This document shows positions 6,853 to 49,822 of a DNA stretch of 51,554 nt, one piece after another. Source of the stretch: Gemmatimonadota bacterium (GTDB lineage: Bacteria; Gemmatimonadota; Gemmatimonadetes; Gemmatimonadales; GWC2-71-9). Numbering within the stretch: position 1 is the stretch's first letter; each line of letters begins with the position of its first letter. The stretch spans positions 1-51,554 of the forward strand of contig QHVC01000116.1 in assembly GCA_003222205.1 (NCBI GenBank), given 5' to 3'. Made by a program: the position numbers and the translations under genes. The notes under the pieces were generated by a model, which saw nothing but the letters and a program-made list of their open reading frames with translations, did not search any database and had not been told where the DNA came from.

Positions 6853-6863
6853 ATTGCAGGGCG

Positions 6864-8375: not shown

Positions 8376-9328
8376 CCGAGTATCGTGAGGCGGATCTGAG
8401 CCGTCTCAAGACCGTCCCGATCGCGCAGCGCTCCAACAAAGTCGACGCCACCCTCCTCGCTCACCCGCCTGGATCGGATCGCAGCTTCGCCGCGTTTTGG
8501 ACTTCGCTCCCCGACATTCTCGCCGCCCGGGACCTGCGGTTCGTCGTGGACCGCGTCGCCGCCGCGGCCGGCAAACACGGCGTCGTGGTGATGCTGGGCG
8601 GCCACGTGATCAAGGTCGGGCTGGGACCCCTGCTGCTGACCTTGCTGCGTCGCCGCGTCCTCACGCACGTGGCGATGAACGGCAGCGCCGCGATTCATGA
8701 CTTCGAGCTCGCCGCGTACGGCGGCACCAGCGAGGACGTGGCCGCCGGTTTGGACGACGGCACGTTCGGGATGGCCGAAGAGACGGGGCGGGACATGAAC
8801 GCCGCGATCACCGCCGGCGCCAAGGCCGAGCAGGGCGCGGGCGAGGCCCTCGCGGAGTCGCTGCGGCGACGCCAGGCGCTGCCCGGGCGCGACGTCTCAG
8901 TCCTCGTCGGGTGCGCCGAGATGGGCATTCCGGTGACCGTGCACGCCGCGATCGGCGCCGAAATCACCCACCAGCACCCGGCCGCCGATGGCGCGGCGCT
9001 GGGCGCGACGAGCCATCGGGATTTCCGGCGGCTCGCCGCTTCCCTGCCGGCCCTCGACGGCGGCGGCGTGGTCCTGAACCTGGGGAGCGCGGTGGTCATG
9101 CCGGAGGTGTTTCTCAAGGCGCTCTCCATCGCCCGCAACCTGAACGGGGGGAAACCCTCGCACTTCACAGCCGTGGACTGCGACATGCAGCGCCACTACC
9201 GGCCGCGGGTGAACGTGGTGGAGCGGCCCACGCGCGCGGGCGGACGAGGCATCATGCTGACCGGGCATCACGAGCTGTTGTTCCCGTTGCTGTGCTGGGG
9301 CGTGCTGGAGCGCCTCGGTGCCCGCTAG
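8372..9328 (+). CDS. conserved hypothetical protein, deoxyhypusine-synthase-like fold (tentative)
   Basis: ATG at 8372 overlaps the upstream TGA (ATGA). Blocks line up by eye with eukaryotic DHS blocks: VVVMLGGHVIKVGLGPLLLTLLRRRVLTHVAMNGSAAIHDFE, IPVTVHAAIGAEITH, GVVLNLGSAVVMPEVF, ELLFPLLCWGV. The fold call comes from memory, not from a search. Confidence 0.5.
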   Translation: MTEYREADLSRLKTVPIAQRSNKVDATLLAHPPGSDRSFAAFWTSLPDILAARDLRFVVDRVAAAAGKHGVVVMLGGHVIKVGLGPLLLTLLRRRVLTHVAMNGSAAIHDFELAAYGGTSEDVAAGLDDGTFGMAEETGRDMNAAITAGAKAEQGAGEALAESLRRRQALPGRDVSVLVGCAEMGIPVTVHAAIGAEITHQHPAADGAALGATSHRDFRRLAASLPALDGGGVVLNLGSAVVMPEVFLKALSIARNLNGGKPSHFTAVDCDMQRHYRPRVNVVERPTRAGGRGIMLTGHHELLFPLLCWGVLERLGAR

Positions 9329-9767
9329 CCGCGCGGTGTTCGTCGTGCTGCTCGGGCTGGCCGCATGCACGACTCGCCACACCGTGGCGCGCCTCACACC
9401 CCGCACGGCCGCGGGCATCCCGGATCGCGTCGAGGCCATGGCGCGCGAGGCCGTGCGCCTCGACGCCGCCGGCGATCCCAAAGCCGACACGCTGTACGCG
9501 GGGGAGGCGATCGTCGTCGGCAACGCGCGCGTGCGCCTTGGCTTCCCGCGCTTCGCGGGGGTGGGCTACGGCGGCCGGGCCACCGTCGCAAGCGTGACGG
9601 TGACCCTGGAAGGACGGTTCGCGTGGGTGCTGCTGGACTACCGGTGGTTCAACCTAACGACCAACCAAGCCGAGGCAGGACGGGCGACGTTCGTCTTCGC
9701 GGAGAAGCCGGACGGCTGGAAGATCATCCACGTCCACTCGAGCCAGGTATTGCCCTGGGACCGCTAG
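9318..9767 (+). CDS. NTF2-like (SnoaL/DUF4440-type) lipoprotein
   Basis: Signal peptide plus lipobox VVLLGLAAC. C-terminal FAWVLLDYRWF...ATFVFAEKPDGWKIIHVHSS is typical of NTF2-like domains. It overlaps the upstream gene by 11 nt. Confidence 0.65.
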   Translation: MPASRAVFVVLLGLAACTTRHTVARLTPRTAAGIPDRVEAMAREAVRLDAAGDPKADTLYAGEAIVVGNARVRLGFPRFAGVGYGGRATVASVTVTLEGRFAWVLLDYRWFNLTTNQAEAGRATFVFAEKPDGWKIIHVHSSQVLPWDR

Positions 9768-11202: not shown

Positions 11203-12204
11203 ATGTACACCACGTGCGCGTTCTGCAACGCAAAGCTCGACGGCGACGGCGGTCCTTCCGGCCTCGGCGTGGGGCGCCGCATCGCCTTCGACGAGTTTAA
11301 GGGGCGGCTGTGGGTCATTTGCCCCAAGTGCGCGCGCTGGAACCTCACACCGCTCGACGACCGGTTGGAACGGATCGAGACTGTGGCCCGCGCGGCCCGG
11401 GAAGCGAAACTCCTCGCCGCCACCGAGCAAGTGGCGCTGCTCCGCTGGCAGGTCTACGACCTCGTCCGCGTGGGGAAGCCGCCCCGTATCGAGCTCGCCC
11501 CGTGGCGTTACGGTGAGCGGCTGAAGGCGCGGCAGCAGGAGCGGCTCAAGTACGTGATCCCACTGACCGTGGCCGCCGTGGGGCTGGGCATCGCGGCCAA
11601 CGTCGCCGCCGGCGGCTCCCTGGGCGTGTTCGTCTGGAACCTGCATCGCCTCGGCGAGGGCTTGTACATCACTGTCGTGGGGAACCGCAAGGTGAACCTC
11701 GCCGAGCCGCCGATTTGCCCCAGCTGCGGCACGCTGCTCGAGCTGCGCGCCAAGCACGTCCAGCACGCGCGCGTGGTACCGGATGCCCACGCGGACATCG
11801 CGGTGATCGTCAGCTGCCCACGCTGCCGCCAGGAGGCCGCGCAACTCACCGGCAGCGACGCGCACGCGGTCCTGCGACAGGGCCTTTCGTATCTCAACGC
11901 GCGTCGCGCGGGGCGACGCCGCGCGGAGGAGGCCGCCCAGGTCGTAGACCACGCGGGCGGACCCGACCGCCTGATCCGGGACGTCGCCCGGCGCGAGCTG
12001 ACGTTGCGGTCGCTGCGCCCCGAGCGACGCCTGGCGCTCGAAATGGCGGTGGACGAGCAGGCCGAGGTGCAGGAGCTGGAACACGAATGGAGGGATGCAG
12101 AGGAGCTGGCCGACATCGCGGACGGGACGCTGAGCTCCAACGCCGAGATCGAGGAGGAATTGCGCAGGCTCAAAGGCAGGGGGGGTAATCAACCAGACGG
12201 TTGA
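11203..12204 (+). CDS. hypothetical membrane protein with two CxxC...CxxC zinc-ribbon modules
   Basis: CAFC...CPKC at the N-terminus and CPSC...CPRC at about residues 172-208. They are separated by a hydrophobic hairpin (KYVIPLTVAAVGLGIAANVAAGGSLGVFVW). The acidic helical C-terminus reads LEMAVDEQAEVQELEHEWRDAEELADIADG. Confidence 0.65.
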   Translation: MYTTCAFCNAKLDGDGGPSGLGVGRRIAFDEFKGRLWVICPKCARWNLTPLDDRLERIETVARAAREAKLLAATEQVALLRWQVYDLVRVGKPPRIELAPWRYGERLKARQQERLKYVIPLTVAAVGLGIAANVAAGGSLGVFVWNLHRLGEGLYITVVGNRKVNLAEPPICPSCGTLLELRAKHVQHARVVPDAHADIAVIVSCPRCRQEAAQLTGSDAHAVLRQGLSYLNARRAGRRRAEEAAQVVDHAGGPDRLIRDVARRELTLRSLRPERRLALEMAVDEQAEVQELEHEWRDAEELADIADGTLSSNAEIEEELRRLKGRGGNQPDG

Positions 12205-16486: not shown

Positions 16487-17878
16487 GTGGCAAACCAATT
16501 CGATGTGATTATTCTGGGCGGCGGGCCCGCGGGCTACGTCGCCGCGATCCGCGCCGCCCAGCTGGGCCTCGCCACCGCCGTCGTCGAGAAGGAGAAGCTC
16601 GGCGGCGTGTGCGTGAACATCGGCTGCATCCCGACCAAGGCGCTGCTCCACTCGGCCTACATCGCGCGGCTGCTCAAGGACGCCAAGGAGTTCGGCGTCG
16701 AGGTCGGGAGCGTGAAGACGGACTACGGCGTCGCGATGAAGCGCTCCCGCCAGGTGAGCGATCAGAACTCCCGCGGCGTCGAGTTCCTGATGAAGAAGAA
16801 CAAGGTCACCGTGATCAAAGGCGCGGGGCTCCTCCAGCCGGGGAAGAAGGTCAAGGTCGGCAGCGACGTGTACGAGGCGACGAAAGGCGTCATCGTCGCC
16901 ACTGGGTCGCGCGTCAAGGGGATCCCGCAGATCGGTCTCGAGATCAACAAGAGCACCGTGATCTCCTCCGACGAGGCGCTGTTCCTCGAGAAGACGCCCA
17001 CGTCCTTGGCGGTGATCGGCGCGGGGGCGGTCGGGATGGAGTTCGCCGACATCTTCAACGCCTTCGGCGCCAAAGTGACGCTGATCGAAGCCCTGCCGCG
17101 GATCCTGCCGATCGAGGATCCGGAAGCCTCCGACACGCTCGCCAAGAGCTACAAGAAGCGCGGCATCGAGGTGATCGCGGGGGCGAAGGTCACCAAGGCC
17201 AACGTCGGCAAGGACAAGGTCGTGCTGGACGTCGAGGCCGGCGGCGCCAGGCAAACGGTCGAAGCCGCGGTGGTGCTGATGGCGGCCGGGCGCGCCGTCA
17301 ATACGGAGAACATCGGGCTCAAGGAGTGCGGCATCCAGCTCACCGACCGCGGCTTCATCAAGGTGGACCAGCGCCTCCAGACCACGACGCCCGGTTACTA
17401 CGCCATCGGCGACGTGGCGGGCCCCCCGATGCTCGCCCACAAGGGCTTCCGCGAGGGCGCCGTGGTGGCCGAGCGGCTCGCCGGCCACACGCCGCACCCC
17501 ATCCGCTACGACAACGTGCCCAGCGTGACGTACTGCCACCCCGAGGTGGCGAGCATCGGGCTCACCGAGGAGCAGTGCAAGGAGCGTAAGCTCGACTATG
17601 TGGCCGGGAAGTTCCCGTTCTCCGCCAACGGCCGGGCCCGCGGCACCGGCGAGACCGAGGGGCTGGTCAAGATCCTGCGCGACAAGAAATACGGGGAGAT
17701 CCTCGGCGCGCACATCGTCGGGGCGCACGCGTCCGAAATGATCCACGAGCTCGCCGTCGCGCGCGAGAACGAGTACACGGTCGAAGAGATCGACCTCGCG
17801 ATCCACGCGCACCCCACCATGTCGGAGGCGGTCGCGGAGGCGGCGCTCGATTCGCTCGGGCGGGCGATCCACATGTGA
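16487..17878 (+). CDS. lpdA: dihydrolipoyl dehydrogenase (E3)
   Basis: FDVIILGGGPAGYVAAIRAAQLG. Redox-active disulfide GGVCVNIGCIPTKALL. C-terminal HAHPTMSEAV. The GTG start is preceded by AAGGAGA with a 6-nt spacer. Confidence 0.95.
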   Translation: MANQFDVIILGGGPAGYVAAIRAAQLGLATAVVEKEKLGGVCVNIGCIPTKALLHSAYIARLLKDAKEFGVEVGSVKTDYGVAMKRSRQVSDQNSRGVEFLMKKNKVTVIKGAGLLQPGKKVKVGSDVYEATKGVIVATGSRVKGIPQIGLEINKSTVISSDEALFLEKTPTSLAVIGAGAVGMEFADIFNAFGAKVTLIEALPRILPIEDPEASDTLAKSYKKRGIEVIAGAKVTKANVGKDKVVLDVEAGGARQTVEAAVVLMAAGRAVNTENIGLKECGIQLTDRGFIKVDQRLQTTTPGYYAIGDVAGPPMLAHKGFREGAVVAERLAGHTPHPIRYDNVPSVTYCHPEVASIGLTEEQCKERKLDYVAGKFPFSANGRARGTGETEGLVKILRDKKYGEILGAHIVGAHASEMIHELAVARENEYTVEEIDLAIHAHPTMSEAVAEAALDSLGRAIHM

Positions 17879-18324
17879 GCGAGCCCGCCCCGTCTCCCCA
17901 GAAGGATCCCTTCGCCATCGGACTGGGTGCCCTCGCCACCGGCGCGGGGCTCGGCGGTGGCGTCGCCACGCTCGCGCAGGGCGTTGTCGCGATTCTGCGC
18001 GACCGGGTCGACCCGGAGTACTACCAATTCGTCGGTGCCGATCCCCTGCTGGCGGGTCTGGTGGCCGGTATCGTCGTCGCCGCGCTCTTCGGCTGGCGGC
18101 GCAGCACCCCTCTCGAAAACCTGTGGCAGAGCGGCGTGATCGGCGTGCTCTCGGCGGTGGGCGCGATCCTCATCGGCTTCCTCGCCGCGGTCGCCGATCG
18201 GCTCCTGGGGCTCGCGGGCATCGTCGCCTGGGGCCTCGCGAGCGTGACGTGCGGCGTCCTGGGCAGCCGCTGGGCGGTGCGCGCGGCGTCCGCGGGCATT
18301 CAGGAACCGGAGAGCACCCAGTGA
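17875..18324 (+). CDS. hypothetical integral membrane protein (about 4 hydrophobic helices)
   Basis: GTG at 17875 overlaps the lpd TGA, and its own TGA overlaps the lipB GTG (GTGA at both ends). Gly/Ala/Val-rich hydrophobic segments include GLGALATGAGLGGGVATLAQGVVAIL, LLAGLVAGIVVAALFGW, GVIGVLSAVGAILIGFLAAV and GLAGIVAWGLASVTCGVLG. Confidence 0.6.
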   Translation: MSEPAPSPQKDPFAIGLGALATGAGLGGGVATLAQGVVAILRDRVDPEYYQFVGADPLLAGLVAGIVVAALFGWRRSTPLENLWQSGVIGVLSAVGAILIGFLAAVADRLLGLAGIVAWGLASVTCGVLGSRWAVRAASAGIQEPESTQ

Positions 18325-19001
18325 GCGAGCGCGTGCTGGAGGTGATTCACGCCGGCCGCGTGCCGTACGGCGAAGCGCTGGAGTGGCAGCGCCGCCTCGC
18401 CCAGGACCGCATCGCGGGGCGCCTTGCGCACGACGTGCTGCTGCTGCTCGAACATCCTCCGGTCATCACGCTCGGTCGCAACAGTCACGCGGAGCACGTC
18501 CTGGCGGACGGCGCCGGGATCGAGGTGTTCGAGATCGAGCGTGGGGGAGATGTGACCTACCACGGCCCCGGTCAGCTCGTCGGCTATCCCATCATCGACC
18601 TCACGCACCACCGCCAGGACCTGCATTGGTACCTGCGGACGCTGGAGCAGGCCCTGATCGACGCTCTGGCCCGGCTCGGCGTCGCCGCCGAGCGGCATCC
18701 CGGCTACACCGGCGTGTGGACCGGGGGCGGCAAGCGCAAGATCGCCAGCATCGGCGTGCACGTGAAACAGTGGGTGACGTGGCACGGCTTCGCCCTGAAC
18801 GTGACGACGGACCTCACCGCGTTCGATCGCATCGTGCCGTGCGGGATCGCGGGCGTGGAGATGACGTCGGTCGAAAAAGAAAGGGGAACGGTGAAGGGGG
18901 AAGGGGCACTCTGGGATGAGACGGTCAGAGCCGTGATTCAAGGCTTCGAGTCGGCGTTCAACCTGACGGCGCGTCAGGAGCCAGTCACCACCAGCGCCTG
19001 A
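18321..19001 (+). CDS. lipB: lipoyl(octanoyl) transferase
   Basis: GTG at residue 67 of ORF 18123..19001. LLLLEHPPVITLGRNS, ERGGDVTYHGPGQLVGYPI, KIASIGVHVKQWVTWHGFALNV, PCGI. Confidence 0.9.
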   Translation: MSERVLEVIHAGRVPYGEALEWQRRLAQDRIAGRLAHDVLLLLEHPPVITLGRNSHAEHVLADGAGIEVFEIERGGDVTYHGPGQLVGYPIIDLTHHRQDLHWYLRTLEQALIDALARLGVAAERHPGYTGVWTGGGKRKIASIGVHVKQWVTWHGFALNVTTDLTAFDRIVPCGIAGVEMTSVEKERGTVKGEGALWDETVRAVIQGFESAFNLTARQEPVTTSA

Positions 19002-19914
19002 CGGTCAGGCCCACCAGGTGCTCCCGGAATACCCGGCGGGTGTCGTTGGATCCGTACATCTCGTATCGATAGCTCAGGTCTAGCTCCCAAACCCTCAACA
19101 GCATTTGCTGCCACACGACGGCCGCCACCCGGTCGTCGTCTCGCCTCAAGACTTTCGTGGTGCCCAGGTCGACCAGGCGGGACGTGTAGCGCCGGATGCG
19201 ATAGCGCGCGCTCCACGCGATCCGGCCTCCGGGCCACAGCGGCGTCGCGATGTCCAGGCCGCCGGTCCAGCCGCTGTAGCGGTGACGGGTGCTGTCGGCA
19301 TAGTTGTACTCGTAGCGGCCGCTCATCCCGAAGCTCCCGTGCGCCCCCAGCAGCTGCCGAAAGCGCGCGCCCACCCGCGGATCGACAGCGTTCTGGCCTT
19401 GGAGGGGGTCCGGGTACCGCTTGAGGAGGTACTCGCCGTACAGCTGCAGGCGGGTCGACCGGGTGAAGCGGTATTCGATCTCGGGTTGCAAGCTGTATTC
19501 GTTGCGCAGGACGCGGTCCTCGGATGAGCCGTTGAGCTCGACTTCCGCGGTGGCTCCCATCACCCAGTGGGGCCCGGTGCGTCGGTCGATCGACAGGCCG
19601 GCGTCGTGCCCCGGGCGATTCCAGATGGTGGTGTTGGTGTAGCGGCGGAACACTCCGTCGTACCACAGCTCGAGGGTCGTGTCCGAGAACCGCTGGCGGT
19701 AGCGTCCTCCCACCACGACGAGCACGCCGTAGGACTCCGGGCCGAGCGGCGTATGATCGATGTTGCTGTCGTAGACGTTCGAGAGCCCCGTATATGCGGA
19801 CCACGCCTGCGGCGCGGGCACGGTCTGCTGGAGCGCGGCGGGCTGCGCGGCGCCGAGCGTCAACACCACGGCGAGCAAGCCGCTGAGGCTTGGCGCGCGT
19901 GCGGGGTACCTCAC
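18985..19914 (-). CDS. outer-membrane beta-barrel protein of unknown family; last gene of the glycoconjugate operon
   Basis: GTG at 19914 overlaps the kinase TGA (GTGA). Signal peptide VRYPARAPSLSGLLAVVLTLGAAQPAALQ. Alternating amphipathic strands rich in Y/R/G (RYEYNYADSTRHRYSGWTGGLD...). Aromatic terminus LTVRRWW. The 3' end overlaps the convergent lipB 3' end by 17 nt. Confidence 0.65.
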   Translation of the reverse strand: MRYPARAPSLSGLLAVVLTLGAAQPAALQQTVPAPQAWSAYTGLSNVYDSNIDHTPLGPESYGVLVVVGGRYRQRFSDTTLELWYDGVFRRYTNTTIWNRPGHDAGLSIDRRTGPHWVMGATAEVELNGSSEDRVLRNEYSLQPEIEYRFTRSTRLQLYGEYLLKRYPDPLQGQNAVDPRVGARFRQLLGAHGSFGMSGRYEYNYADSTRHRYSGWTGGLDIATPLWPGGRIAWSARYRIRRYTSRLVDLGTTKVLRRDDDRVAAVVWQQMLLRVWELDLSYRYEMYGSNDTRRVFREHLVGLTVRRWW

Positions 19915-20981
19915 GAAGCGGCCCTCCCGGCTCTCCCCGGGCTCCTCACGCGCGGCCTCAGGGCCCCGTCGAGGCGCTGCTCGGACAGCTCGAGCAGTGC
20001 GACGGTGAACGCCCGCCGCTCCGCGAACTGCGTGCTGAGATAGACGTGGCGCGCGAGGGTGAGCAGGGCGTAGGCCCGCACGGTCGGCCGCGCCGAGGCA
20101 CCCGCAAGTTCGACGAAGCGGTCTTCCAGCGCCGCTTCCCGATCCGCGAGCGCCCCCGGATCTCCCTGCGTGCGCAGGCTCTGCTCCGTGATGTGGGCAA
20201 TGCAATTGCCGACGTCGAGGGCCGGGTCGCCCTCGCAGTAGAGATCGAAGTCGAGCAGGTAGAGCCGCTCACCGTCGAGCAGCGCGTGGTCGGGATAGAA
20301 GTCGCGATGGATGCCGCATGGCGGACCCGGCGTCGTCGCCGCGCCGAGGCGATCACAGGCGGCGAGCAGCCGCCGCAGCCGCCACGCCCACTCCGGTCGC
20401 GTCTCCCGCAGTGCCTCCAGGCAGCGATGCAGTATGCGCAGCTCGTCGGCCATGGTGTGCCGGCGCCGAGTCGCCACGCCTGCCTCATGCAGCTTGTGCA
20501 CCGCCTCGGCAAGCCGTCGCGCCAGCGCCACCCCGGTCGGCTCCGCCAGCGCGACGGTCGCCGCGGTGCCTCGCACCTTGCGTTGCAGCCACACCCCGAG
20601 CTCGGGGACCATGCCGACCGGCTCGGGGACGGCGATCCCATCCGGGCTCGCGTCGTCGAAGCCGCGCGCGCGCAGCGCCTGGACGAGGCGGAACGTCCCG
20701 GTATCGGCGCCGCGGGCCCGGGCCTTGGCCACGAGCGTGATGGCCTCTGGGGGCCCGTCGCGGCGCGTCACCTCCAGGTCGTACTCGATTAGGCAACGAC
20801 GCCCGGGTTTGTAGCGCACGGTACGGATCGCGCGCAAGGCGAGTCGAAGGGCGCCCCCGAACGGTCCGGCCTCTGGTGCGCGGAGGCGGCGTTCGACTTC
20901 CTCGGGATCGAGGGCCCGAGCAAGCAACGGCATCGCCGGGTCGGTACGGACGCCGAACGGGTCCAGCGTCACCGCGCTCAT
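19911..20981 (-). CDS. kinase of the APH / Kdo-WaaP lipopolysaccharide-kinase-like fold
   Basis: ATG at residue 112 of ORF 19911..21314 overlaps the methyltransferase TGA (ATGA). Catalytic loop CGIHRDFYPDHALL. Metal-binding LYLLDFDLYCEGDPALDVGN. N-lobe LIEYDLEV...ITLVAKAR. Confidence 0.7.
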   Translation of the reverse strand: MSAVTLDPFGVRTDPAMPLLARALDPEEVERRLRAPEAGPFGGALRLALRAIRTVRYKPGRRCLIEYDLEVTRRDGPPEAITLVAKARARGADTGTFRLVQALRARGFDDASPDGIAVPEPVGMVPELGVWLQRKVRGTAATVALAEPTGVALARRLAEAVHKLHEAGVATRRRHTMADELRILHRCLEALRETRPEWAWRLRRLLAACDRLGAATTPGPPCGIHRDFYPDHALLDGERLYLLDFDLYCEGDPALDVGNCIAHITEQSLRTQGDPGALADREAALEDRFVELAGASARPTVRAYALLTLARHVYLSTQFAERRAFTVALLELSEQRLDGALRPRVRSPGRAGRAAS

Positions 20982-21934
20982 GCCTTCGTCACTCGCAGCC
21001 AGATCTCGAGACGGCCGTGGATCAGATCCCGCCGCTCGACCCCTTCCGCCAGCGAGTCGCCGACGTCCGGACACTCCTCCAGGAGCGCGACGGCGAACGC
21101 CGACGGCTCCTCCGTCCACTCCAGGACTTCGAACGGTCCCGCCCCGATGAGGGAACGCCACTGCCCGAGGGTCAGGCGGTTCAGCGTCTGCAAGCGCGCG
21201 CAGCGTGTGGCGGCCATCGCCGCACCCTCGCTCTCCGTGACGAACCGTCGGAAGTCTTCCAACGTCATCCGGGCGTGGGCCCACGGGATGTCCACAAGCC
21301 CGCGCTTGTGGCAACCACGGAGCCAGAAGTAGGGATCGACGCGCAGATGGATCACACCTCCTGGCCGCACGACGCGCGCCATCTCGGCCAACGCACGCTC
21401 CACGGGCGCGATGTGCTCCATCGCCGACCGGGACACGAGCACGTCGAAGCAGGCGTCGGGGAACGCCAGTCGCGTGGCGTCGGCGCGGACGAAACGGACG
21501 GACGGAGGGGGGCCGGCCGTGGCGTGGGCCCGCCGACGCGCGCGCTCGAGGCGCTCGCGGACCAGCCCCGCCAGCCGGCGCGCGGGCGCCGCCATTTCAC
21601 CGGACTCGAAGAGCGGCAGCCGCAGATCTACGCCCACCGCGCGCCGCACGGCCACCGCGGCGAGGACGAGACAGTTGATCCCGTCGCCGCATCCCACATC
21701 GAGGACGGCCGCGCCGTCCAAGCGGTCGTGACGTCTCGCGACCGCGGCGACCAGGCGACGCGCCCGGGCCAGCTTCTTATCCGCGGCTCGCGCGTAGTCC
21801 TCCGCCGTCCAGTCCGGCCGCGGCGTCACCGACGGCCGGGAGCCGAGCACGCGGTCGCGGAAACCGGGAACGACCCGCACCGGCCGCCCATCCGTGCGGA
21901 CGAACGTCGTCATGCAGCCGCCGCCGCTGGGCAT
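20978..21934 (-). CDS. class I SAM-dependent methyltransferase with a C-terminal extension
   Basis: Motif I AAVLDVGCGDGIN. Post-I/II ...FDVLVSRSAMEHI. Motif III MARVVRPGGVIHL. Alternative ATG at 21913. Confidence 0.8.
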   Translation of the reverse strand: MPSGGGCMTTFVRTDGRPVRVVPGFRDRVLGSRPSVTPRPDWTAEDYARAADKKLARARRLVAAVARRHDRLDGAAVLDVGCGDGINCLVLAAVAVRRAVGVDLRLPLFESGEMAAPARRLAGLVRERLERARRRAHATAGPPPSVRFVRADATRLAFPDACFDVLVSRSAMEHIAPVERALAEMARVVRPGGVIHLRVDPYFWLRGCHKRGLVDIPWAHARMTLEDFRRFVTESEGAAMAATRCARLQTLNRLTLGQWRSLIGAGPFEVLEWTEEPSAFAVALLEECPDVGDSLAEGVERRDLIHGRLEIWLRVTKA

Positions 21935-21949
21935 CGCGCCGGCTCCGCT

Positions 21950-23800
21950 TCAGGTCGTGGCCGCATGGGAGGGTTGCGGGTCTGGGCCCCGGGCGCCGCC
22001 GGCCGTCTGCAGGTGGTAGAGAAGCGCATACCGTCCGTCGGTCTGCAGCAGCTCGGCGTGGGTGCCACGCTCGCGCACGCGGCCGGCTTCCAGGTAGAGG
22101 ATCACGTCCGCCCGGGCCGCGAGCTGCAGGTCATGGGTGATCAGGAACGTCGTCCGCCCCTCGGCCAACCGCTCCAGCGCCTCGATGACCGCCCGTTCGT
22201 TCTCGCCGTCGAGGCCCACTGTCGGCTCGTCGAGGATGAGGAGCGGGGCGCGCCGCACCGCCGCACGAGCGATCGCGATCCGCTGGCGCTGCCCGTTGGA
22301 CAGCGTGACGCCGCGCTCCCCGACGATGGTGTCGTATCCTTGCGGTAACGCCTCGACGAACGCGTGGGCGTTCGCGAGGCGGGCGGCCGCCTCGATCGCC
22401 TCGCGGGACGCGCCCGGCGCACCGTAGGCGATGTTGTCCTGGATCGTCGCGGCGAACAGCAGACTGTCCTGCAGGACCACGCTCGCCTGCGCGCGCAGCG
22501 AGGCGAGCGTGTACTCACGGATGTCGCGCCCGTCGATAAGCACCCGCCCTGCCGTGGGGTCGTACAGCCGCAGGATGAAACTCACGAAGGTGGATTTCCC
22601 GCTGCCGGACGGGCCCACCAACGCGACGTGTTGCCCCGCCTCCACCTCGCAGTCGATCGCTTCGAGCGCGGGCTGGCCCGGCTCGTAGCAGAAGCCGACG
22701 CCGTCGAACCGCACCGCCCCGCGCAAGGCGGGCGCCGGCACCGCCCCCGGCAGGTCGCGCACGTCGGGCGTGCGGTCCAGGAGATCGAGCACCCGCTCGC
22801 CCGCGGCGGACGCTTTCGCGAGGCGGCCCGTGTACTTGACGAAGTCGCGCACCGGGCGAAACGCATTCTTCAAGTACGCGAGGAACACCACGAGGTCGCC
22901 CGGGGTCATCGCGCCGCGCAGCGCCGATCGCGCGCCGAACCACAGCACCGCGGCGGTCGCGATCGCGATGAGCAGGTCCACGGTCCGCTCCAGCGCGGCG
23001 GAGAGGCGGGTCGCGCGGACGCCGGTCGCGAGATTCTTGCGGCTCTGTCCGGTGAAGGCCTGCGCGAAGGTCCCCTCGAGGGAGAGGGCGTGGATCACCT
23101 TGACCGCGCCGATCGATTCCGCGGCCGTCGCGGCCATCGCGCCCTCCTGCTGGCGCTGCCGCCGGGCCGTCTCGCGGATGCGGCGGCTGAGCCGGGCTGT
23201 GGATACCCAGAACAGCGGGCCCGTCGCCAAAGCGATCAGGGTGAGGGGAGCGTTGAGCCACAGCATCACCGCGGCCATGCCGACCAGCGTGAGGGCGTTG
23301 GCGAGCAGCGGCAGGAGCCCCGTGACCGCGACGTCCTGCAGGAACCCGACATCCCCCGTGACGCGCAGCAGCAGGTCACCGCTCCGGGCCCGATTGTGAA
23401 ACGAGAGGGACAGACGCTGGAGCTGGCCGTACAACTCGTTTCGAACGGCGGTCAGGACCCGGTTGCCGATGAGCGCGAAGCCGACCGTGTTGTAGTAGGC
23501 CGCGAGCGCCCGCAGGCCCGCGAACACGATCACGGCCAGCGCGGAGACCGCGAGGAGCGTCGCCGGATCGAGGGCGTCGAGGACCGGGAGCCGGGGCCCG
23601 CGGTGCCGGGTGACCGCGGCGATGCGGTCCAGCACCCACTTCAGCGGCCAGGGCTCGAGCAGCCGCATGCCGATCTCGGCGTACAGGGCGAACATCGACA
23701 CGGTGATCAGGGCGCGCTCGCGGCGCACGTAGGGCCAGAAGCGCCGCGCCAGCCGGCCCAGGCCGGGAAGCGAATCGCGAAGGCTCAGGGGACGTCCCAC
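21950..23800 (-). CDS. fused TMD-NBD ABC exporter (MsbA/PglK-like half transporter)
   Basis: N-terminal six-helix domain. Walker A GPSGSGKST, signature LSNGQRQRIAIARA, Walker B LLILDEPT, H-loop ITHDL. The GTG start abuts the upstream TAG with no spacer. Confidence 0.92.
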   Translation of the reverse strand: MGRPLSLRDSLPGLGRLARRFWPYVRRERALITVSMFALYAEIGMRLLEPWPLKWVLDRIAAVTRHRGPRLPVLDALDPATLLAVSALAVIVFAGLRALAAYYNTVGFALIGNRVLTAVRNELYGQLQRLSLSFHNRARSGDLLLRVTGDVGFLQDVAVTGLLPLLANALTLVGMAAVMLWLNAPLTLIALATGPLFWVSTARLSRRIRETARRQRQQEGAMAATAAESIGAVKVIHALSLEGTFAQAFTGQSRKNLATGVRATRLSAALERTVDLLIAIATAAVLWFGARSALRGAMTPGDLVVFLAYLKNAFRPVRDFVKYTGRLAKASAAGERVLDLLDRTPDVRDLPGAVPAPALRGAVRFDGVGFCYEPGQPALEAIDCEVEAGQHVALVGPSGSGKSTFVSFILRLYDPTAGRVLIDGRDIREYTLASLRAQASVVLQDSLLFAATIQDNIAYGAPGASREAIEAAARLANAHAFVEALPQGYDTIVGERGVTLSNGQRQRIAIARAAVRRAPLLILDEPTVGLDGENERAVIEALERLAEGRTTFLITHDLQLAARADVILYLEAGRVRERGTHAELLQTDGRYALLYHLQTAGGARGPDPQPSHAATT

Positions 23801-24976
23801 CTACGCCGCCACCGGGTCGTGGGTGGCGAGGGCGAGGACCTTCGCTGCAACCGCGTCCCACGTATGTCCCTGGAGCACCGTCGCCCGCGCGGCACGCCCG
23901 AGCCGGTCGCGGAGCTCCGGCTCACGCCGCAACCGAGAGAGTGCGGTGGCCAGCGCCCCAGGGTCCGCTGGCGAGCAGAGCAGCCCGTTGATCTCATGCT
24001 GGATGACCGCCTCAAGTTGCCCGACCCGACTCGCGACGACCGCGCGACCCGCCGCCATGTACTCGTAGACCTTGAGCGGCGAAAAGTAGAAGCGCTTGGA
24101 GTCCGGGTACGGAGCGACGGCCGCGTCCATGGACGTCAGGAGGCCCGGCACCTCGCCTGGCGCCACGACCCCGGTGAGCACGGCGGCGTTCGTCAGCCCG
24201 CGGGCCGCCAGTTCCGCACGGATAGCCGCATCCTCGGGCCCGCCGCCCACGAGCAGCAACCGGGTCGCCGCATCGTCGTGGTGGAGACGGGCGAACGCCT
24301 CGATAAGGACGGACAGGCCGTGCCACGGCTTCATCGAGCCGACGAAGCCCACGGTGAACGTCCCTGGCGGTCCCGGGCTGGCGGGCCGCACATCCGGCCG
24401 GAACCGCTCGGGGGCCACGCCGTTGTGCAGCACATGCACGCGGCCTCCCCCCGGGGCCGATGGCCAGCGCGCGAGCCAGGCGGCGACCTCGGCCGATACC
24501 GCCACCAGCGCGGTCGCCGCCTGAAAGACCCGTGCGGCCACCAGGGCCGCGCCCCCGGCATCGCGCAACCCTCGGTGTACCGCCTGCTCTTCGATGAGAG
24601 GCGCATTCACCTCGAGCAGGCCGGAGATGCCGGCCGCGCGGGCCTGCTCCATGGCGGCGAAGCTCCAGAGCGAGTACCGCTCGTAGACGAGGTCGTACGG
24701 CCCCGCTCGCTCGATCGCCGCGGCGACCTCGTGGTTCAGAGCCGTTACGGCGGCCGCGTGGCCGGCGGGCTCGCCGTCGCGGATCGCGGGCAGCCGGTGC
24801 ATCGACAGCGCGTCGAAGTCGGGCGGCGGCCGCTCGCCCACGCGGGCGGCGAACAGGTCCACGCGAGCGCCCTGGCGCTGGAAGGCACGGATCATCTCTT
24901 GCACGTGGACCGAGCTGCCCTTGCAGCCGAACACCGGGACCCCCGCGTCGGCGCAGACGTAGGCGATCCGCATCAC
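23801..24976 (-). CDS. glycosyltransferase family 4
   Basis: (M)MRIAYVCADAGVPVFGCKGSSVHVQEMIRAF at the N-terminus. C-terminal donor-binding region FYFSPLKVYEYMAAGRAVVASRVGQLEAVI. The start (GTG 24976 or ATG 24973) overlaps the upstream TGA. Confidence 0.85.
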   Translation of the reverse strand: MMRIAYVCADAGVPVFGCKGSSVHVQEMIRAFQRQGARVDLFAARVGERPPPDFDALSMHRLPAIRDGEPAGHAAAVTALNHEVAAAIERAGPYDLVYERYSLWSFAAMEQARAAGISGLLEVNAPLIEEQAVHRGLRDAGGAALVAARVFQAATALVAVSAEVAAWLARWPSAPGGGRVHVLHNGVAPERFRPDVRPASPGPPGTFTVGFVGSMKPWHGLSVLIEAFARLHHDDAATRLLLVGGGPEDAAIRAELAARGLTNAAVLTGVVAPGEVPGLLTSMDAAVAPYPDSKRFYFSPLKVYEYMAAGRAVVASRVGQLEAVIQHEINGLLCSPADPGALATALSRLRREPELRDRLGRAARATVLQGHTWDAVAAKVLALATHDPVAA

Positions 24977-26208
24977 CCCGCCTCCGCGAGCTCGACGGCC
25001 GCCGCGCCCGCCTCGTGGAAGATCGCGCGGAGCCGCGCGGCGGTGCGGCGGATATCGAAGTCCGTTTCCATGCGGCGGCGCGCCTGCGAGGCGACGCGCT
25101 CGCGCAGCGCTGGGTCGGTGAGGAACCGCTCCAGCGCCGCCGCCAGGGCGGCCGGGTCGTGCTCGGGCACAACGAGTCCCGCTTCGCCGGGGTTGAGCAG
25201 CTCCGGGATCCCCGTGACCGCGGTGCCGACGCAGGGAGTGCCGAGCGCCATGGCTTCCAACAGCACGGTCGGCAGGCCGTCGCGGTCGCCGTCCGGCCCC
25301 ACGACGCAGGGTGCCGCGAGCACGGCGGCGCTGCGGACGTGCTCGATCACTTCCCAGCGCGGGCGCGGGCCGACGAGCTGCACGAATCCTTCAAGACGGC
25401 GGCTCTGCACCAGCGCCTGCAACGCCGGCTCGAGCGGCCCGGTGCCGACGATCTCGCAACGGAACGCGAGACCGCGAGCGCGCAGGATGGCGCAAGCCTC
25501 GACGAGGTCCGCGAAGCCTTTCTTCTCTACCAGGCGACCGACGGCGGCGATCCGCGGCGACCGCTCCGCCGGGGACTCGTAGCAGAACTGCTCGAGGTCG
25601 AGGCCGTTGTAGATGCGCTGCACGCGCGCGGCGGCGGCGCCGTAGGCCTGGGTCAGGTAGTCCTGATTGTAATCGCTCACGGTGATGACGGCCGCGGCCT
25701 CCCCGAGCTTGCGGCGTAGATCCTCGGGCCGGACGCTCTCGTGGAAGATGTCCTTGGCGTGGGCGGTGAACGTATAGGGCACCTTCGCCCAGCGACTGGC
25801 CAGGCGGGTGACCGCGGCCGGGGCGCTCGCGAAGTGCGCGTGCAGGTGGCCGATCCCGCGCCGACGCACCTCGCAGGCGAGCACGGCGGCCTGGCAGACG
25901 GTCAGGGCCTCTTCGCCCCGCGCCGCCTCCAGCGCGCTCCACATGCCCGGCAAGGTGGCGGACGCGTCCTCGAGCGCAGCCCACAGGTCCACCGCCTTCA
26001 GGCCCTGCGACGGGAGGTAACAGACCGGCGCCCGCACGCGGGCGATGGCGTCCTGGAAATGGGTGTCGTTGGGCGGGAACAGCGAGAAGATTTCGACCTC
26101 CAGCCCGGCCGCCTCGTGGGCCGCAATCTCGGCGACGACGAACGTCTCGGAGTAGCGCGGGTAGCGCTTGGTCACATACCCGACGCGGAGCGGGGCGTCA
26201 CGCCACAT
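24973..26208 (-). CDS. glycosyltransferase family 4 (WcaL-like)
   Basis: RVGYVTKRYPRYSETFVVAEIAAHEAAGLEVEIFSL has a WcaL-like N-terminus. EX7E region DGDRDGLPTVLLEAMALGTPCVGTAVTGIPELL. Confidence 0.85.
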   Translation of the reverse strand: MWRDAPLRVGYVTKRYPRYSETFVVAEIAAHEAAGLEVEIFSLFPPNDTHFQDAIARVRAPVCYLPSQGLKAVDLWAALEDASATLPGMWSALEAARGEEALTVCQAAVLACEVRRRGIGHLHAHFASAPAAVTRLASRWAKVPYTFTAHAKDIFHESVRPEDLRRKLGEAAAVITVSDYNQDYLTQAYGAAAARVQRIYNGLDLEQFCYESPAERSPRIAAVGRLVEKKGFADLVEACAILRARGLAFRCEIVGTGPLEPALQALVQSRRLEGFVQLVGPRPRWEVIEHVRSAAVLAAPCVVGPDGDRDGLPTVLLEAMALGTPCVGTAVTGIPELLNPGEAGLVVPEHDPAALAAALERFLTDPALRERVASQARRRMETDFDIRRTAARLRAIFHEAGAAAVELAEAG

Positions 26209-27445
26209 GATGGACCTCGGCGCGGAACCGGCGGCGCGGGGACATGCGTGGCCGGAAGCCGAGGAGATCTTCCAGCAATCGCGGCACGCGACTCAGGCCG
26301 TTGAAATCGATGTGCTGCCGCGCCGGTCGCACCGGGGTCCGGCCGCGGGCGAGCCAGTCAGTCAGGGCCGCCGGACTCAACGCTTCCGGGTGCAGCACCT
26401 CCAGGAGCCCCAGCGCCTGCATGCGCTCGGCACGGATGAGTTGCTCGCGCCGCGGCTTCACCCGGGGCACGATCAGAGCGGGCTTGCCGAACGACAGGAC
26501 CTCGCACACCGTGTTGTAGCCGCCCATGGCTACGACCTGATCCGCCGTGCGCAGCAGCCGCGTCGGCTCGCTCATGAACGACACGACGCGTCGGCCGGGA
26601 CGTTGCGCGGCGCGTCGAGCCAGACGCCGCCGCACCGGGTCGGGCATGGACGGCCCCGTGATCAGCACGCCGTTCGTGTCGGGCGGGAGCTCCGCACCCT
26701 CGAAGGCCTGCGCGAGCGCCGCGCCGTCCTGCCCGCCCCCCACCAGGCACAGCGCGAGCCGACCGGGCGATAACCCCAGCGCCGCGATTGTGTCAGGCCC
26801 GCCGTCTTCCTCCCCCCCGAACGTGAGCCTTAGGCGCTGATCGAGGTAGCCGGTGTAGCGCGCCTTGGCTGCCACGTCGGGGGCGAAGGCATACTCGCGC
26901 ACCGGGTCGTACACGGCGGGGTCCCCGTACACCCACACGGCGTCGTAGTAGCGGCGGACGGCTTCCTGGTTCTGTGCGCTGGCCCACTCGCGCTGCAGCG
27001 TCACCGGGTCATCAAGCACATCCCGCAAGCCGAGCACGACCCGCGTGCGGCGCCGGTCGCGCAACGTCTCCAGGACGGGGTCGAGCTCGCGCAGGGCTCC
27101 CCGCGGCACGTTGTCCACGATCAGCACGTCCGGCGCGAAGGCCTCAAGCGCGCCACATGCCGTCTTCGCCCGCAACGTCAGCAGGTCGGCGAGGGAGACC
27201 TCGAGATGCCGGGGGTGGTACTGCCCGTGTTCGTCCTTGCGCAGCGAGGGCAAGGACACACAATCCACGCCGGCGGCTGCGGTCAGGAGGCTCGCCTCCC
27301 GTGCGCCGGCGATCATCAGCACGACGGCGTGCAGCCGGGAGCGCTGGAGCGCCTGCGCCAGCAACAGGTTGCGGCGCATGTGCCCAAGCCCCATTGTGTC
27401 GTGGGAGTAGAATGCAACGCGACACCTGGGAGTCGGCATCGACAT
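26198..27445 (-). CDS. GT-B glycosyltransferase with a MurG/GT28-like C-terminal domain (COG4671-like); first gene of the operon
   Basis: ATG at residue 70 of ORF 26198..27652 (MSMPTPRCRVAFYSHDTMGLGHMRRNLLLAQAL). C-terminal ADQVVAMGGYNTVCEVLSFGKPALIVPR. A second ATG at 27439 is also possible. The 3' end overlaps the next gene by 11 nt. Confidence 0.75.
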   Translation of the reverse strand: MSMPTPRCRVAFYSHDTMGLGHMRRNLLLAQALQRSRLHAVVLMIAGAREASLLTAAAGVDCVSLPSLRKDEHGQYHPRHLEVSLADLLTLRAKTACGALEAFAPDVLIVDNVPRGALRELDPVLETLRDRRRTRVVLGLRDVLDDPVTLQREWASAQNQEAVRRYYDAVWVYGDPAVYDPVREYAFAPDVAAKARYTGYLDQRLRLTFGGEEDGGPDTIAALGLSPGRLALCLVGGGQDGAALAQAFEGAELPPDTNGVLITGPSMPDPVRRRLARRAAQRPGRRVVSFMSEPTRLLRTADQVVAMGGYNTVCEVLSFGKPALIVPRVKPRREQLIRAERMQALGLLEVLHPEALSPAALTDWLARGRTPVRPARQHIDFNGLSRVPRLLEDLLGFRPRMSPRRRFRAEVHHVA

Positions 27446-27732
27446 ATCCCCATCAGGCAATGGGCGACCTAGCAGTCGTCGGCGAGAATCCCCAGGCGGG
27501 CGCCGGATCAGCGAGGATTGTACGCACCGCATCGGTGCGGGCACGCGACCGACTACCAACGAATGGCTGCGACGAGCGACGGAAAACGAAGTCCGCGGTA
27601 GAGCGACATGCACCAGCTTGGCACTACCAACAAAGGACGCCCGTCGTCCCATGGAAGTAACGAGTACCGCGTGGGCGCTTCGGTGACTCCCCTCACCCGC
27701 CTTTGGGTCGGTGGATACTGTAGGAAAAGGAT

Positions 27733-27750
27733 GTCAACCCGCCGTCAACC
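27733..27750 (+). promoter_or_regulatory. direct repeat GTCAACC-N4-GTCAACC (11-bp phasing); candidate winged-helix response-regulator site
   Basis: Read directly at 27733-27739 and 27744-27750, about 80 nt upstream of the Mo-oxidoreductase start. The 7+4+7 architecture matches that of PhoB/OmpR-type boxes. No experimental support. Confidence 0.25.
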
Positions 27751-27828
27751 ACGCCTACGACAGGAAAGGAACCGACCGGGTGCGAGCCGATGACTCGAGG
27801 AGAAGCACGAGATGATGGAGCGCGGGTC

Positions 27829-45229: not shown

Positions 45230-45260
45230 GGGGCACCGTGGGTGGTGCCCCTTGTGCTTT
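45230..45260. terminator. bidirectional intrinsic terminator hairpin
   Basis: GGGGCACC (45230-45237), loop gtgggt, GGTGCCCC (45244-45251), followed by ttgtgcttt. It is preceded by cgaaaaaca, which gives a U-run for minus-strand transcripts. It lies between convergent genes. Confidence 0.6.
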
Positions 45261-45262
45261 CA

Positions 45263-45294
45263 GTCCGACGGTCCGATCGTCCGACCGTCCTGCC
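45263..45294. repeat. 4x 8-nt phased array GTCCGACG GTCCGATC GTCCGACC GTCCTGCC (right arm, inverted relative to 45187-45218)
   Basis: Read directly. gtccgaccgtc (45279-45289) is the exact reverse complement of gacggtcggac (45187-45197). The array ends at the SusD-like stop codon. Confidence 0.8.
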
Positions 45295-49781: not shown

Positions 49782-49822
49782 CGGTCGAACCCTCCACATC
49801 GAGAGCGCATGAACCAGATCGA

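Follow-up and report, generated by a model that had tools for sequence, protein, structure and literature searches.

A seven-gene block of a Gemmatimonadales contig as a candidate form of a widespread cassette for making and exporting a decorated extracellular glycan

The window analysed here is a stretch of 51,554 nucleotides (nt) from a soil-dwelling Gemmatimonadota bacterium (order Gemmatimonadales; GenBank assembly GCA_003222205.1, contig QHVC01000116.1). Between positions 27445 and 18985 its minus strand carries seven intact open reading frames (ORFs), G1 to G7, which encode three glycosyltransferases (GTs), an ATP-binding cassette (ABC) exporter, a methyltransferase, a kinase and an outer-membrane barrel. 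A first-pass annotation, made from the DNA letters, had described the block as a self-contained module that makes, decorates and exports a glycoconjugate. Gene structure, protein families, folds, membrane topology, synteny, accessory swaps and gene fusions were determined directly. They indicate that the conserved unit consists of G1-G4, usually together with G6, that G5 and G7 are lineage-specific add-ons, and that the core has spread by horizontal transfer across at least six bacterial phyla and one archaeon. We put at roughly 55% the probability that these seven genes are the form taken in Gemmatimonadales by a widespread cassette which moves horizontally and serves to make and export a decorated extracellular glycan, and that the cluster sll1722-sll1726 of Synechocystis sp. 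PCC 6803 is probably the same cassette.

Due to the G+C content of about 70%, the ORF lists of the window are crowded with spurious frames. True frames were chosen by codon-position GC content and a frame plot, and proteins were translated from the starts used here. Read along the minus strand, G1 (26198-27445, 415 amino acids (aa), ATG start) is a cytoplasmic glycosyltransferase of the GT-B fold, belonging to the GT1/GT28 clan and of COG4671 type. It is followed by G2 (24973-26208, 411 aa), a WcaL/EpsE-like GT4 enzyme, and G3 (23801-24976, 391 aa, GTG start), a second GT4 enzyme. G4 (21950-23800, 616 aa, GTG start) is an ABC exporter of the ABCB/type IV half-transporter kind, with the transmembrane domain fused to the nucleotide-binding domain (NBD). 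G5 (20978-21934, 318 aa) is a class I S-adenosylmethionine-dependent methyltransferase, G6 (19911-20981, 356 aa) a cytoplasmic APH-family kinase with a protein-kinase-like fold, and G7 (18985-19914, 309 aa, GTG start) an outer-membrane beta-barrel of 14 strands with a signal peptide.

The genes are arranged like an operon: they overlap or abut and have one upstream non-coding region in common. G1 and G2 overlap by 11 nt, G2 and G3 share a GTGA, and the TAG stop of G3 directly abuts the GTG start of G4; a 15-nt gap separates G4 from G5, after which G5/G6 and G6/G7 overlap in ATGA and GTGA, respectively. The G+C content of third codon positions (GC3) is 0.85-0.92 in the seven frames and, together with the frame plot, backs these frames as well as the short starts of G1, G6 and G7. 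Moreover, the G1 start agrees with the N-termini of its homologues, and the short G7 with homologues of 309-313 aa. Translation, GC3 and frame plot bear out the gene ends and junctions reported in the first-pass annotation, and its family assignments agree with Pfam and NCBIfam (for G7, which has no Pfam match, with a signal-like N-terminus and a 14-strand model). No transmembrane segment is present in G1, G2 or G6, G4 is polytopic, and the N-terminus of G7 is signal-like.

To place the block in a wider context we scanned one genome per species (185,579 species genomes), fetched 80 loci and searched these with the seven proteins using tblastn. Relatives of G1 occur in 431 of the species-level genomes. 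Among 65 loci with full-length copies of all four genes, G1-G2-G3-G4 are colinear in 62 (median span 5.56 kb), and outside the Gemmatimonadales each of the four is about 55-60% identical to the window copy. Identity to the window rises and falls together for G1, G3 and G4 (r 0.91-0.94; 0.93-0.94 for G3 against G1 or G4). Such synteny excludes that the arrangement arose by chance. Hosts belong to at least six bacterial phyla, including Cyanobacteria, Planctomycetota, Acidobacteriota, Chloroflexota and Gemmatimonadota, and to one archaeon, Ca. Methanoperedens. Among them are Nostoc, Anabaena, Coleofasciculus, Lyngbya, Crocosphaera and other cyanobacteria, Vicinamibacterales and other Acidobacteriota, Chloroflexia, Anaerolineae, Gemmatimonadales and Planctomycetota.

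The full seven-gene order recurs in three loci of Gemmatimonadales metagenome-assembled genomes (MAGs; L006, L009 and L032), and in a fourth (L013) as far as the contig reaches. The claim of a self-contained seven-gene unit is thus valid as regards gene order within the Gemmatimonadales, but has to be narrowed to G1-G4 (plus G6) as the conserved unit, with G5 and G7 as accessories. A G6-type kinase follows the exporter in most loci, and is lacking in most planctomycete and some Gemmatimonadales loci. Overall the decoration genes vary: zero to two kinases, a methyltransferase, and two or three extra GT4 genes (L008, L014) are found. Swaps of this kind are in keeping with a glycan that is exported and whose decoration varies.

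Three individual loci deserve mention. In Ca. Methanoperedens nitroreducens (L022, 9926-17679) an intact six-gene cassette, consisting of G1-G4 and two APH kinases, lies between an H+-pyrophosphatase gene and hypA; its G+C content of 52.9%, against 43-45% in the flanks, indicates acquisition from bacteria. The MAG Gemmatimonadetes bacterium AG17 carries two cassette types (L010 and L073), one of the window type and the other with a divergent G2 and a 1214-aa CarboxypepD_reg barrel, and such an organism may make two related products. Finally, in a planctomycete locus without kinases (L023, 10125-12065) the exporter is followed by a 646-aa protein with two sulfotransferase domains. A swap of phosphate for sulfate is possible in this one case; as a general rule for Planctomycetes we reject it, as it was seen in a single locus.

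G1 is the signature gene of the cassette and likely encodes its first or regulated step. The protein has thousands of relatives (955 representative clusters at E<=1e-30). The first-pass annotation had called it MurG-like, which is correct for the donor-binding C-terminal domain, but not for the protein as a whole. The Pfam model Glyco_tran_28_C, whose cutoff is 22 bits, reaches 31.9 bits and covers this domain only, and a phmmer search aligns G1 with residues 182-320 of E. coli MurG (E 4e-5). The N-terminal acceptor domain (Pfam Glyco_transf_28) gives no match, and the NCBIfam murG equivalog TIGR01133 reaches 21 bits against a cutoff of 250. The AlphaFold2 (AF2) model (mean predicted local distance difference test, pLDDT, of 86.9) has a GT-B fold with nucleotide-sugar-binding motifs. 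Its best Foldseek neighbours are OleI/OleD, CalG and Gtf enzymes (TM-score about 0.6, 15-19% identity), and MurG is absent from the top 50, which are mostly GT1 enzymes. Given this fold and the neighbouring GT1 natural-product enzymes, G1 is assigned to the GT1/GT28 clan and should not be called MurG.

In other genomes G1 is found fused to a receiver domain (REC::G1), to an APH kinase (APH::G1), to a GT4 (G1::GT4), to a UDP-sugar dehydrogenase and to an epimerase/dehydratase. Fusion proteins with cassette genes are P0333, P0407, P0321, P0466, P0347, P0396 and P0430, along with those at L086 7766-9979 and L051 15249-17759. Fusion to a receiver domain suggests control of the first step by phosphorylation. 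Together with GT4::G6 and kinase::kinase fusions, the fusions of G1 to GT4, APH, receiver and nucleoside diphosphate (NDP)-sugar dehydrogenase or epimerase tie the parts of the cassette together.

Both remaining GTs belong to family GT4. G2 matches Pfam Glycos_transf_1 (113.9 bits) and Glyco_transf_4, and aligns over its full length with the NCBIfam models of EpsE (176 bits) and WcaL (156 bits), both under cutoff; for the WcaL equivalog TIGR04005 this cutoff is 537.6. With 33% identity to E. coli WcaL over 413 aa (140 bits), G2 is, judged by these scores, WcaL-like but not WcaL. G3 matches Pfam Glyco_trans_1_4 (99.7 bits) and Glyco_transf_4, its best NCBIfam model is stp3 (123 bits, under cutoff), and its best relatives in the PDB are the sucrose-phosphate synthase (SPS) Tll1590, MshA and PimA.

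The GT28-type donor domain of G1 and the lipid-acting PimA and PimB' among the GT4 relatives raise the question whether the product might be a membrane glycolipid. Here G1 would glycosylate a diacylglycerol-type lipid and the GT4 enzymes would extend it (the logic of monogalactosyldiacylglycerol (MGDG) synthase, YpfP and LafA/LafB), after which G4 would flip it, as LtaA and MsbA do, and the kinase would turn it into a phosphoglycolipid located in the outer leaflet or outer membrane. Lipid flipping is common among ABCB exporters, and YpfP-LtaA of Staphylococcus is a known make-then-flip operon, in which a cytoplasmic GT28-family enzyme is likewise encoded beside the transporter that moves its product outward. 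Nonetheless LtaA belongs to the major facilitator superfamily rather than to the ABC transporters, there is one GT against three, and kinase, methyltransferase and barrel are lacking there. Furthermore, G1-G3 lack segments that would anchor them in a membrane, lipids are not moved by porin-like outer-membrane partners, and the whole G1 model lies nearer to small-molecule GT1 enzymes than to MurG or MGD. The intact cassette in Ca. Methanoperedens, with its archaeol-based lipids, also speaks against a diacylglycerol acceptor such as that of YpfP-LtaA. We regard a glycolipid product as an alternative to be taken seriously, but unlikely.

G4 is the only transporter of the cassette. It matches Pfam ABC_membrane (140 bits) and ABC_tran (115 bits) in one fused chain, has multiple transmembrane segments and always comes after G3 in cassette loci. 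It had been described as MsbA/PglK-type; this remains true in the sense of a generic ABCB half-transporter, but every equivalog cutoff is missed. The top NCBIfam model, TIGR02203 (MsbA_lipidA), scores 431 bits against a cutoff of 602, NF008381 352 against 867, and the HepA and glucan exporter models, both aligned over the full length, 359 against 725 and 324 against 733. PglK (NF050066) reaches 138 bits against 1000, over residues 362-572 (the NBD) only, and among PDB sequences Sav1866 (336 bits) is matched better than MsbA (294 bits). No ABC2-type permease is present in the window, and no separate Wzm permease with Wzt ATPase was found. G4 is presumably a homodimeric, generic ABCB half-transporter that exports the finished glycan.

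With MsbA_lipidA as the top NCBIfam match, and a composition like that of waa clusters (GT4 resembling WaaG, kinase resembling WaaP/WaaY, an MsbA-like ABC protein), it might be argued that the block is a lipopolysaccharide (LPS) inner-core or O-antigen module, in which the GTs build the core on lipid A, the kinase is WaaP and G4 is the MsbA flippase. We reject this reading, which we consider extremely improbable, on the equivalog scores (the MsbA, PglK and murG cutoffs are all missed, and no WaaP-family match was found) and on occurrence in organisms without lipid A. The distribution is patchy and includes Chloroflexota and an archaeon, one MAG holds two cassette paralogues, and the kinases are dispensable. 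The block is no LPS module of the waa/MsbA kind. G4 shares its fold and domain order with the MsbA and PglK flippases; what separates it from them is the host range just mentioned, the higher score of Sav1866, and the restriction of the PglK match to the NBD. HepA (heterocyst envelope polysaccharide of Anabaena) and NdvA/ChvA (cyclic glucans) are fused ABCB-type exporters for carbohydrate instead of lipid A. Here too the scores are far under the equivalog cutoffs, and neither the GTs of the heterocyst envelope polysaccharide island nor an NdvB-type synthase lies beside the cassette.

As to the decoration of the glycan, G5 matches Pfam Methyltransf_11 (73 bits) and was found only in window-type Gemmatimonadales loci and in a Vicinamibacterales variant (L086, L087), where homologues of 50-55% identity lie at another position, namely at the cluster end after an extra GT4 fused to a G6 orthologue. 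Every cassette-linked G5 co-occurs with a G6-type kinase. In L088 (10001-11756) a G5-like methyltransferase (55% identity) stands beside a truncated APH fragment and insertion sequence (IS) transposase genes, with no GT or ABC genes, and looks like a decayed cassette remnant.

G6 had been called WaaP/APH-like. The APH part stands, as PF01636 (63.5 bits) is its sole Pfam match at E<=0.01; no WaaP/Kdo family match was found, so that WaaP has to be dropped. NCBIfam gives weak matches to LxmK and homoserine kinase only. The catalytic HRD...D and DxD columns are invariant in all 16 of 16 orthologues, and G6 would be the common anionic-decoration enzyme of the cassette. In L086 the G6 orthologue fused to the extra GT4 is 45% identical over its full length, and several loci have a second, longer APH kinase, in some fused to the first. 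The weak LxmK-like match raised the idea of a peptide made on the ribosome and modified after translation (RiPP) or glycocin; it was rejected, since the spaces between the genes are too small for a precursor gene and G4 lacks a peptidase domain.

The pairing of a methyltransferase and a kinase recalls the polymannan O antigens O8 and O9a of E. coli, which are built by the GT4 mannosyltransferases WbdA/B/C, terminated by the methyltransferase-kinase WbdD and exported by Wzm/Wzt, with WecA encoded elsewhere. Similarities are the cytoplasmic assembly by GT4 enzymes and a methyltransferase adjoining a kinase of protein-kinase-like fold, the two following one another as the WbdD domains do from N to C terminus; a priming phosphoglycosyltransferase (PGT) outside the cluster and decoration before ABC export would be further parallels under the pathway proposed below. 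The cassette differs in its exporter (an ABCB/type IV half-transporter instead of Wzm/Wzt with a carbohydrate-binding module), in a first GT of the GT1/GT28 clan, in its optional kinases, in the attached outer-membrane barrel, and in G5 and G6 having no detectable similarity to WbdD. WbdD was not among the listed PDB matches at E<=1 for G5 (best 60 of 62), for G6 or for the G6 family profile (phmmer and profile searches). Homology to WbdD is therefore rejected and the analogy is one of logic only.

G7 has no Pfam match above cutoff and no sequence match in the PDB; members of its family give sub-threshold Pfam matches to SlipAM, OMP_b-brl, Phenol_MetA_deg and DUF481. The AF2 model (pLDDT 84.6) is a 14-strand barrel preceded by an N-terminal hydrophobic segment, with CymA (E 6e-9, TM-score 0.56-0.58) and OmpG as the best Foldseek matches (TM-score about 0.57, about 12% identity). 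Like CymA and OmpG it has 14 strands, but it does not belong to a sequence family with them, a CarboxypepD_reg domain absent from both is found in most G7 relatives, and CymA and OmpG serve uptake instead of export. Most homologues of G7 are about 490 aa long with the CarboxypepD_reg domain at the N-terminus, and the window protein is a short form without it. The two TonB-dependent receptors encoded elsewhere in the window (49-2148 on the plus strand and 46710-49799 on the minus strand) carry N-terminal domains of this same type.

G7 is proposed as the outer-membrane passage for the product. Relatives of 27-37% identity occur in Vicinamibacterales cassettes, and barrels of the G7 type also in Gemmatimonadales cassettes. 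Other lineages have other partners: in Cyanobacteria an OprB/Som porin adjoins the cassette (34 loci), and upstream there is usually a two-component sensor pair that resembles heavy-metal sensors (under cutoff); an HlyD-family adaptor adjoins it in seven planctomycete loci, and the 1214-aa CarboxypepD_reg barrel in one Gemmatimonadales type. No outer-membrane or periplasmic partner was noted in the Chloroflexia and archaeal loci examined. The partners are unrelated to one another across the diderm lineages.

Searching the literature by COG4671, by combinations of domain names and by UniProt/RefSeq accessions gave no useful account of the cassette. Its probable counterpart is the cluster sll1722-sll1726 of Synechocystis. 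This is described as a cluster of five genes for presumptive glycosyltransferases, reportedly needed for exopolysaccharide (EPS) production and for withstanding light and H2O2 (Foster et al. 2009, cited via PMC3566033 and PMC6971039). The UniProt accessions of Sll1722 to Sll1726 are P73403, P73402, P73401, P73400 and P73399, respectively. According to the supplement of PMC7133116, accessions in the cluster are consecutive: sll1722 encodes a hypothetical protein of about 50 kDa, sll1723 a WcaL-like GT of 413 aa (140 bits to E. coli WcaL), sll1724 a GT of 379 aa, sll1725 an MsbA/CydC-like ABC protein of 610 aa and sll1726 a phosphotransferase of 329 aa. The genes are stress-responsive: ethanol and salt induce them, their repression is lifted in a lexA mutant, and iron limitation represses them at an early stage. 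Knock-down of Sll1725 is reported to raise sensitivity to cadmium (Cd); the claims on EPS, stress regulation and Cd are jointly drawn from PMC3566033, PMC6971039, PMC4759255, PMC3564720 and PMC12691841.

The window shows the same type of order (G1-like protein, WcaL-like GT4, GT4, ABCB exporter, APH-type kinase), with G5 inserted before the kinase, and the cyanobacterial loci L001 and L003 have the order described for sll1722-sll1726. Against E. coli WcaL, G2 reaches 140 bits, which equals the value published for sll1723. The five genes of the cluster agree with the cassette in order, size and annotation, and other cyanobacterial cassettes are laid out alike; a methyltransferase and an adjacent barrel are lacking in the cluster as described. 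By this comparison of order, sizes and names, orthology is well supported, and sll1722-sll1726 probably represents this cassette. The view of the block as an undescribed system has to be revised accordingly: it is probably not wholly so, as its layout equals that of a genetically studied EPS and stress cluster.

One published assignment does not agree with this comparison. In 2004 sll1722 was published as a myo-inositol-1-phosphate synthase (as cited in PMC7550737), which does not fit the GT-B fold found for G1. Since the model of G1 is a confident GT-B structure with nucleotide-sugar-binding motifs, we question the assignment, which on this model appears doubtful. In a published table sll1722 was not found among the matches of E. 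coli MurG.

The reported Cd phenotype of the Sll1725 knock-down leads to another interpretation, namely that the cassette serves detoxification or efflux, with G4 as a pump for Cd or xenobiotics and with the GT1-like enzyme and the kinase inactivating a toxin (in the logic of OleI/OleD-OleB and Mph). The G1 model is indeed closest to the macrolide and natural-product enzymes OleI/OleD and CalG, the APH family of G6 includes antibiotic kinases, the cyanobacterial sensor pair is heavy-metal-sensor-like (under cutoff), and a patchy, transfer-driven distribution in soil organisms would fit. Three GTs in fixed order, with extra GT4s in some variants, fit biosynthesis better, however; the reported loss of EPS in the Synechocystis mutants can explain metal sensitivity indirectly, and outer-membrane barrels as well as fusions with NDP-sugar enzymes point to glycan production. 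Detoxification as the function of the cassette is therefore very improbable.

Under the preferred interpretation, glycan biosynthesis, the priming and polymerising functions have to be accounted for. The first-pass annotation had observed that canonical parts are missing, and this holds: no Wzm/Wzt, Wzx/Wzy/WaaL, Wza/Wzc, outer-membrane polysaccharide export (OPX), PGT or nucleotide-sugar gene was found among the tested ORFs of the window; six window ORFs have no Pfam match. When E. coli WecA, WcaJ and WzxC served as tblastn queries against the cassette loci (1.54 Mb), neither a WecA-type PGT nor a Wzx came up; only in five related Nostoc loci is a WcaJ-like gene seen, about 9 kb upstream of the cassette. 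No initiating PGT or Wzx lies inside any cassette.

Apart from that distant Nostoc gene, the absence of PGT and Wzx would also suit a product made without a lipid carrier. G1-G3 would then build a free phospho- or methyl-phospho-oligosaccharide, which G4 exports as NdvA/ChvA do cyclic glucans, and which either acts as an osmoprotectant in the periplasm or leaves through G7 or OprB. The outer-membrane partners are porin-type channels, G7 being closest to the cyclodextrin channel CymA and to OmpG; the best solved relatives of G2 and G3 include SPS, MshA and GlgM, which act on small phosphorylated acceptors; in bacteria and in an archaeon alike the cassette operates as a unit of its own; and a GT4::kinase fusion would fit a kinase that supplies the phospho-acceptor. 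On the other hand, the EPS loss described for the Synechocystis mutants points to a polymer, ABCB exporters more often take amphipathic substrates, no glucan-type synthase or cyclase is present, and the HlyD adaptor of the planctomycete cassettes fits direct trans-envelope export. We consider a soluble anionic oligosaccharide a serious alternative, though on balance unlikely.

The best reading is a stress-related, ABC-exporter-dependent pathway to a phosphorylated and methylated extracellular glycan, for which we infer the following order of reactions. Three soluble cytoplasmic GT-B enzymes would use common nucleotide sugars to assemble a short glycan or repeat, G1 probably catalysing the initiating, regulated step and G2 and then G3 acting after it. 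The acceptor would not be made by the cassette and is most likely a polyprenyl-(di)phosphate sugar, for whose priming a housekeeping enzyme would be encoded at another site, comparable to the situation in E. coli O8/O9a. We favour this acceptor because it is the sole class common to bacteria and archaea, because the donor domain of G1 is MurG-like, and because the O8/O9a clusters likewise have no primer gene. Still in the cytoplasm, G6 would phosphorylate the glycan and G5 would then methylate the phosphate or a sugar hydroxyl. GTs, kinase and methyltransferase have no transmembrane segments or signal peptides, which would be consistent with capping before export. G4, probably as a homodimer, would carry the product across the inner membrane, and the 14-strand barrel of G7 may let it cross or leave the outer membrane. 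The product is probably part of an anionic extracellular matrix that helps under stress. Both the gene families and the cytoplasmic make-decorate-export logic of the first-pass annotation stand.

A number of points weigh against this pathway. The orthology with sll1722-sll1726 stands on gene order, sizes and names. As no PGT, polymerase, ligase or OPX component lies in or beside any cassette, a lipid-linked polymer would need several unlinked host functions. The exporter is not of the Wzm/Wzt type and has no carbohydrate-binding module, and neither G5 nor G6 is similar in sequence to WbdD. Most cassettes of planctomycetes and some of Gemmatimonadales have no kinase, so that export does not require phosphorylation. 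The adjacency of the porin in cyanobacteria could reflect vertical inheritance instead of function, and the Foldseek TM-scores of G1 and G7 are about 0.6 only. Finally, the presence of the cassette in an archaeon and in Chloroflexota speaks against an acceptor specific to diderms.

There is also a bolder version, which we put forward tentatively and consider rather unlikely: the cassette, with G1-G3, an ABCB exporter, exchangeable decoration by kinase, methyltransferase or sulfotransferase and exchangeable outer-membrane channels, might be a hitherto unrecognised, self-sufficient route that makes and secretes a small anionic oligosaccharide or glycoconjugate without PGT, polymerase or Wzm/Wzt. 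It would then represent a new, self-priming class of glycan export, distinct from the known ABC-dependent polysaccharide routes and horizontally shared by at least six phyla and an archaeon.

If the pathway to a decorated extracellular glycan is correct, a single small set of genes that is readily transferred accounts for some of the extracellular glycan made by many soil and mat organisms, among them cyanobacteria, Gemmatimonadota, Acidobacteriota, Planctomycetota, Chloroflexota and an archaeon that oxidises methane. It would give a biochemical framework to the sll1722-sll1726 phenotypes (loss of EPS, and sensitivity to light, to peroxide and to Cd), which have been without one until now. The product is predicted to be anionic and variably decorated, and to cross the outer membrane via a dedicated small barrel. 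Besides sll1722 as an inositol-phosphate synthase, a second published assignment, Sll1725 as a direct Cd pump, is called into question.

Upstream of G1 lies a non-coding region of 344 nt (27446-27789, minus strand), which separates it from a divergent molybdopterin oxidoreductase gene starting at 27790. The codon-position GC signal is lost here, the G+C content is lower, and a tandem GTTGAC...GTTGAC motif is present; sequence blocks are kept in the Gemmatimonadales locus L006 and partly in L004. The region is presumed to hold the promoter and 5' leader of the operon. Neither a sigma-70 consensus match, nor a convincing terminator, nor an Rfam match was found in it, and on the latter ground a regulatory RNA in the leader was rejected.

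At the other end the block is bounded by a convergent gene for the lipoyl transferase LipB (plus strand), which ends at 19001 and overlaps the 3' end of G7 by 17 nt (18985-19001), leaving no terminator room between the two transcription units. Between the E3 dehydrogenase gene and lipB an ORF of 149 aa (17875-18324, with a coding-like GC3 of 0.88) has no Pfam match; given that the listed LipB ORF (18123-19001) overlaps it, the true LipB start is probably near 18320. The other genes of the window have housekeeping functions and encode lipoate synthase, a 2-oxoacid dehydrogenase complex, DnaE, AccA, methionyl-tRNA synthetase (MetRS), peptidases and the two TonB-dependent receptors; further genes for polysaccharides were not detected among them. 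ORFs of 200-500 aa without a Pfam match are located at 5479-6768, 6849-8369, 8117-8896, 8897-9523, 11203-12204 and 45238-46647, some of which may be shadow frames of the high-G+C DNA.

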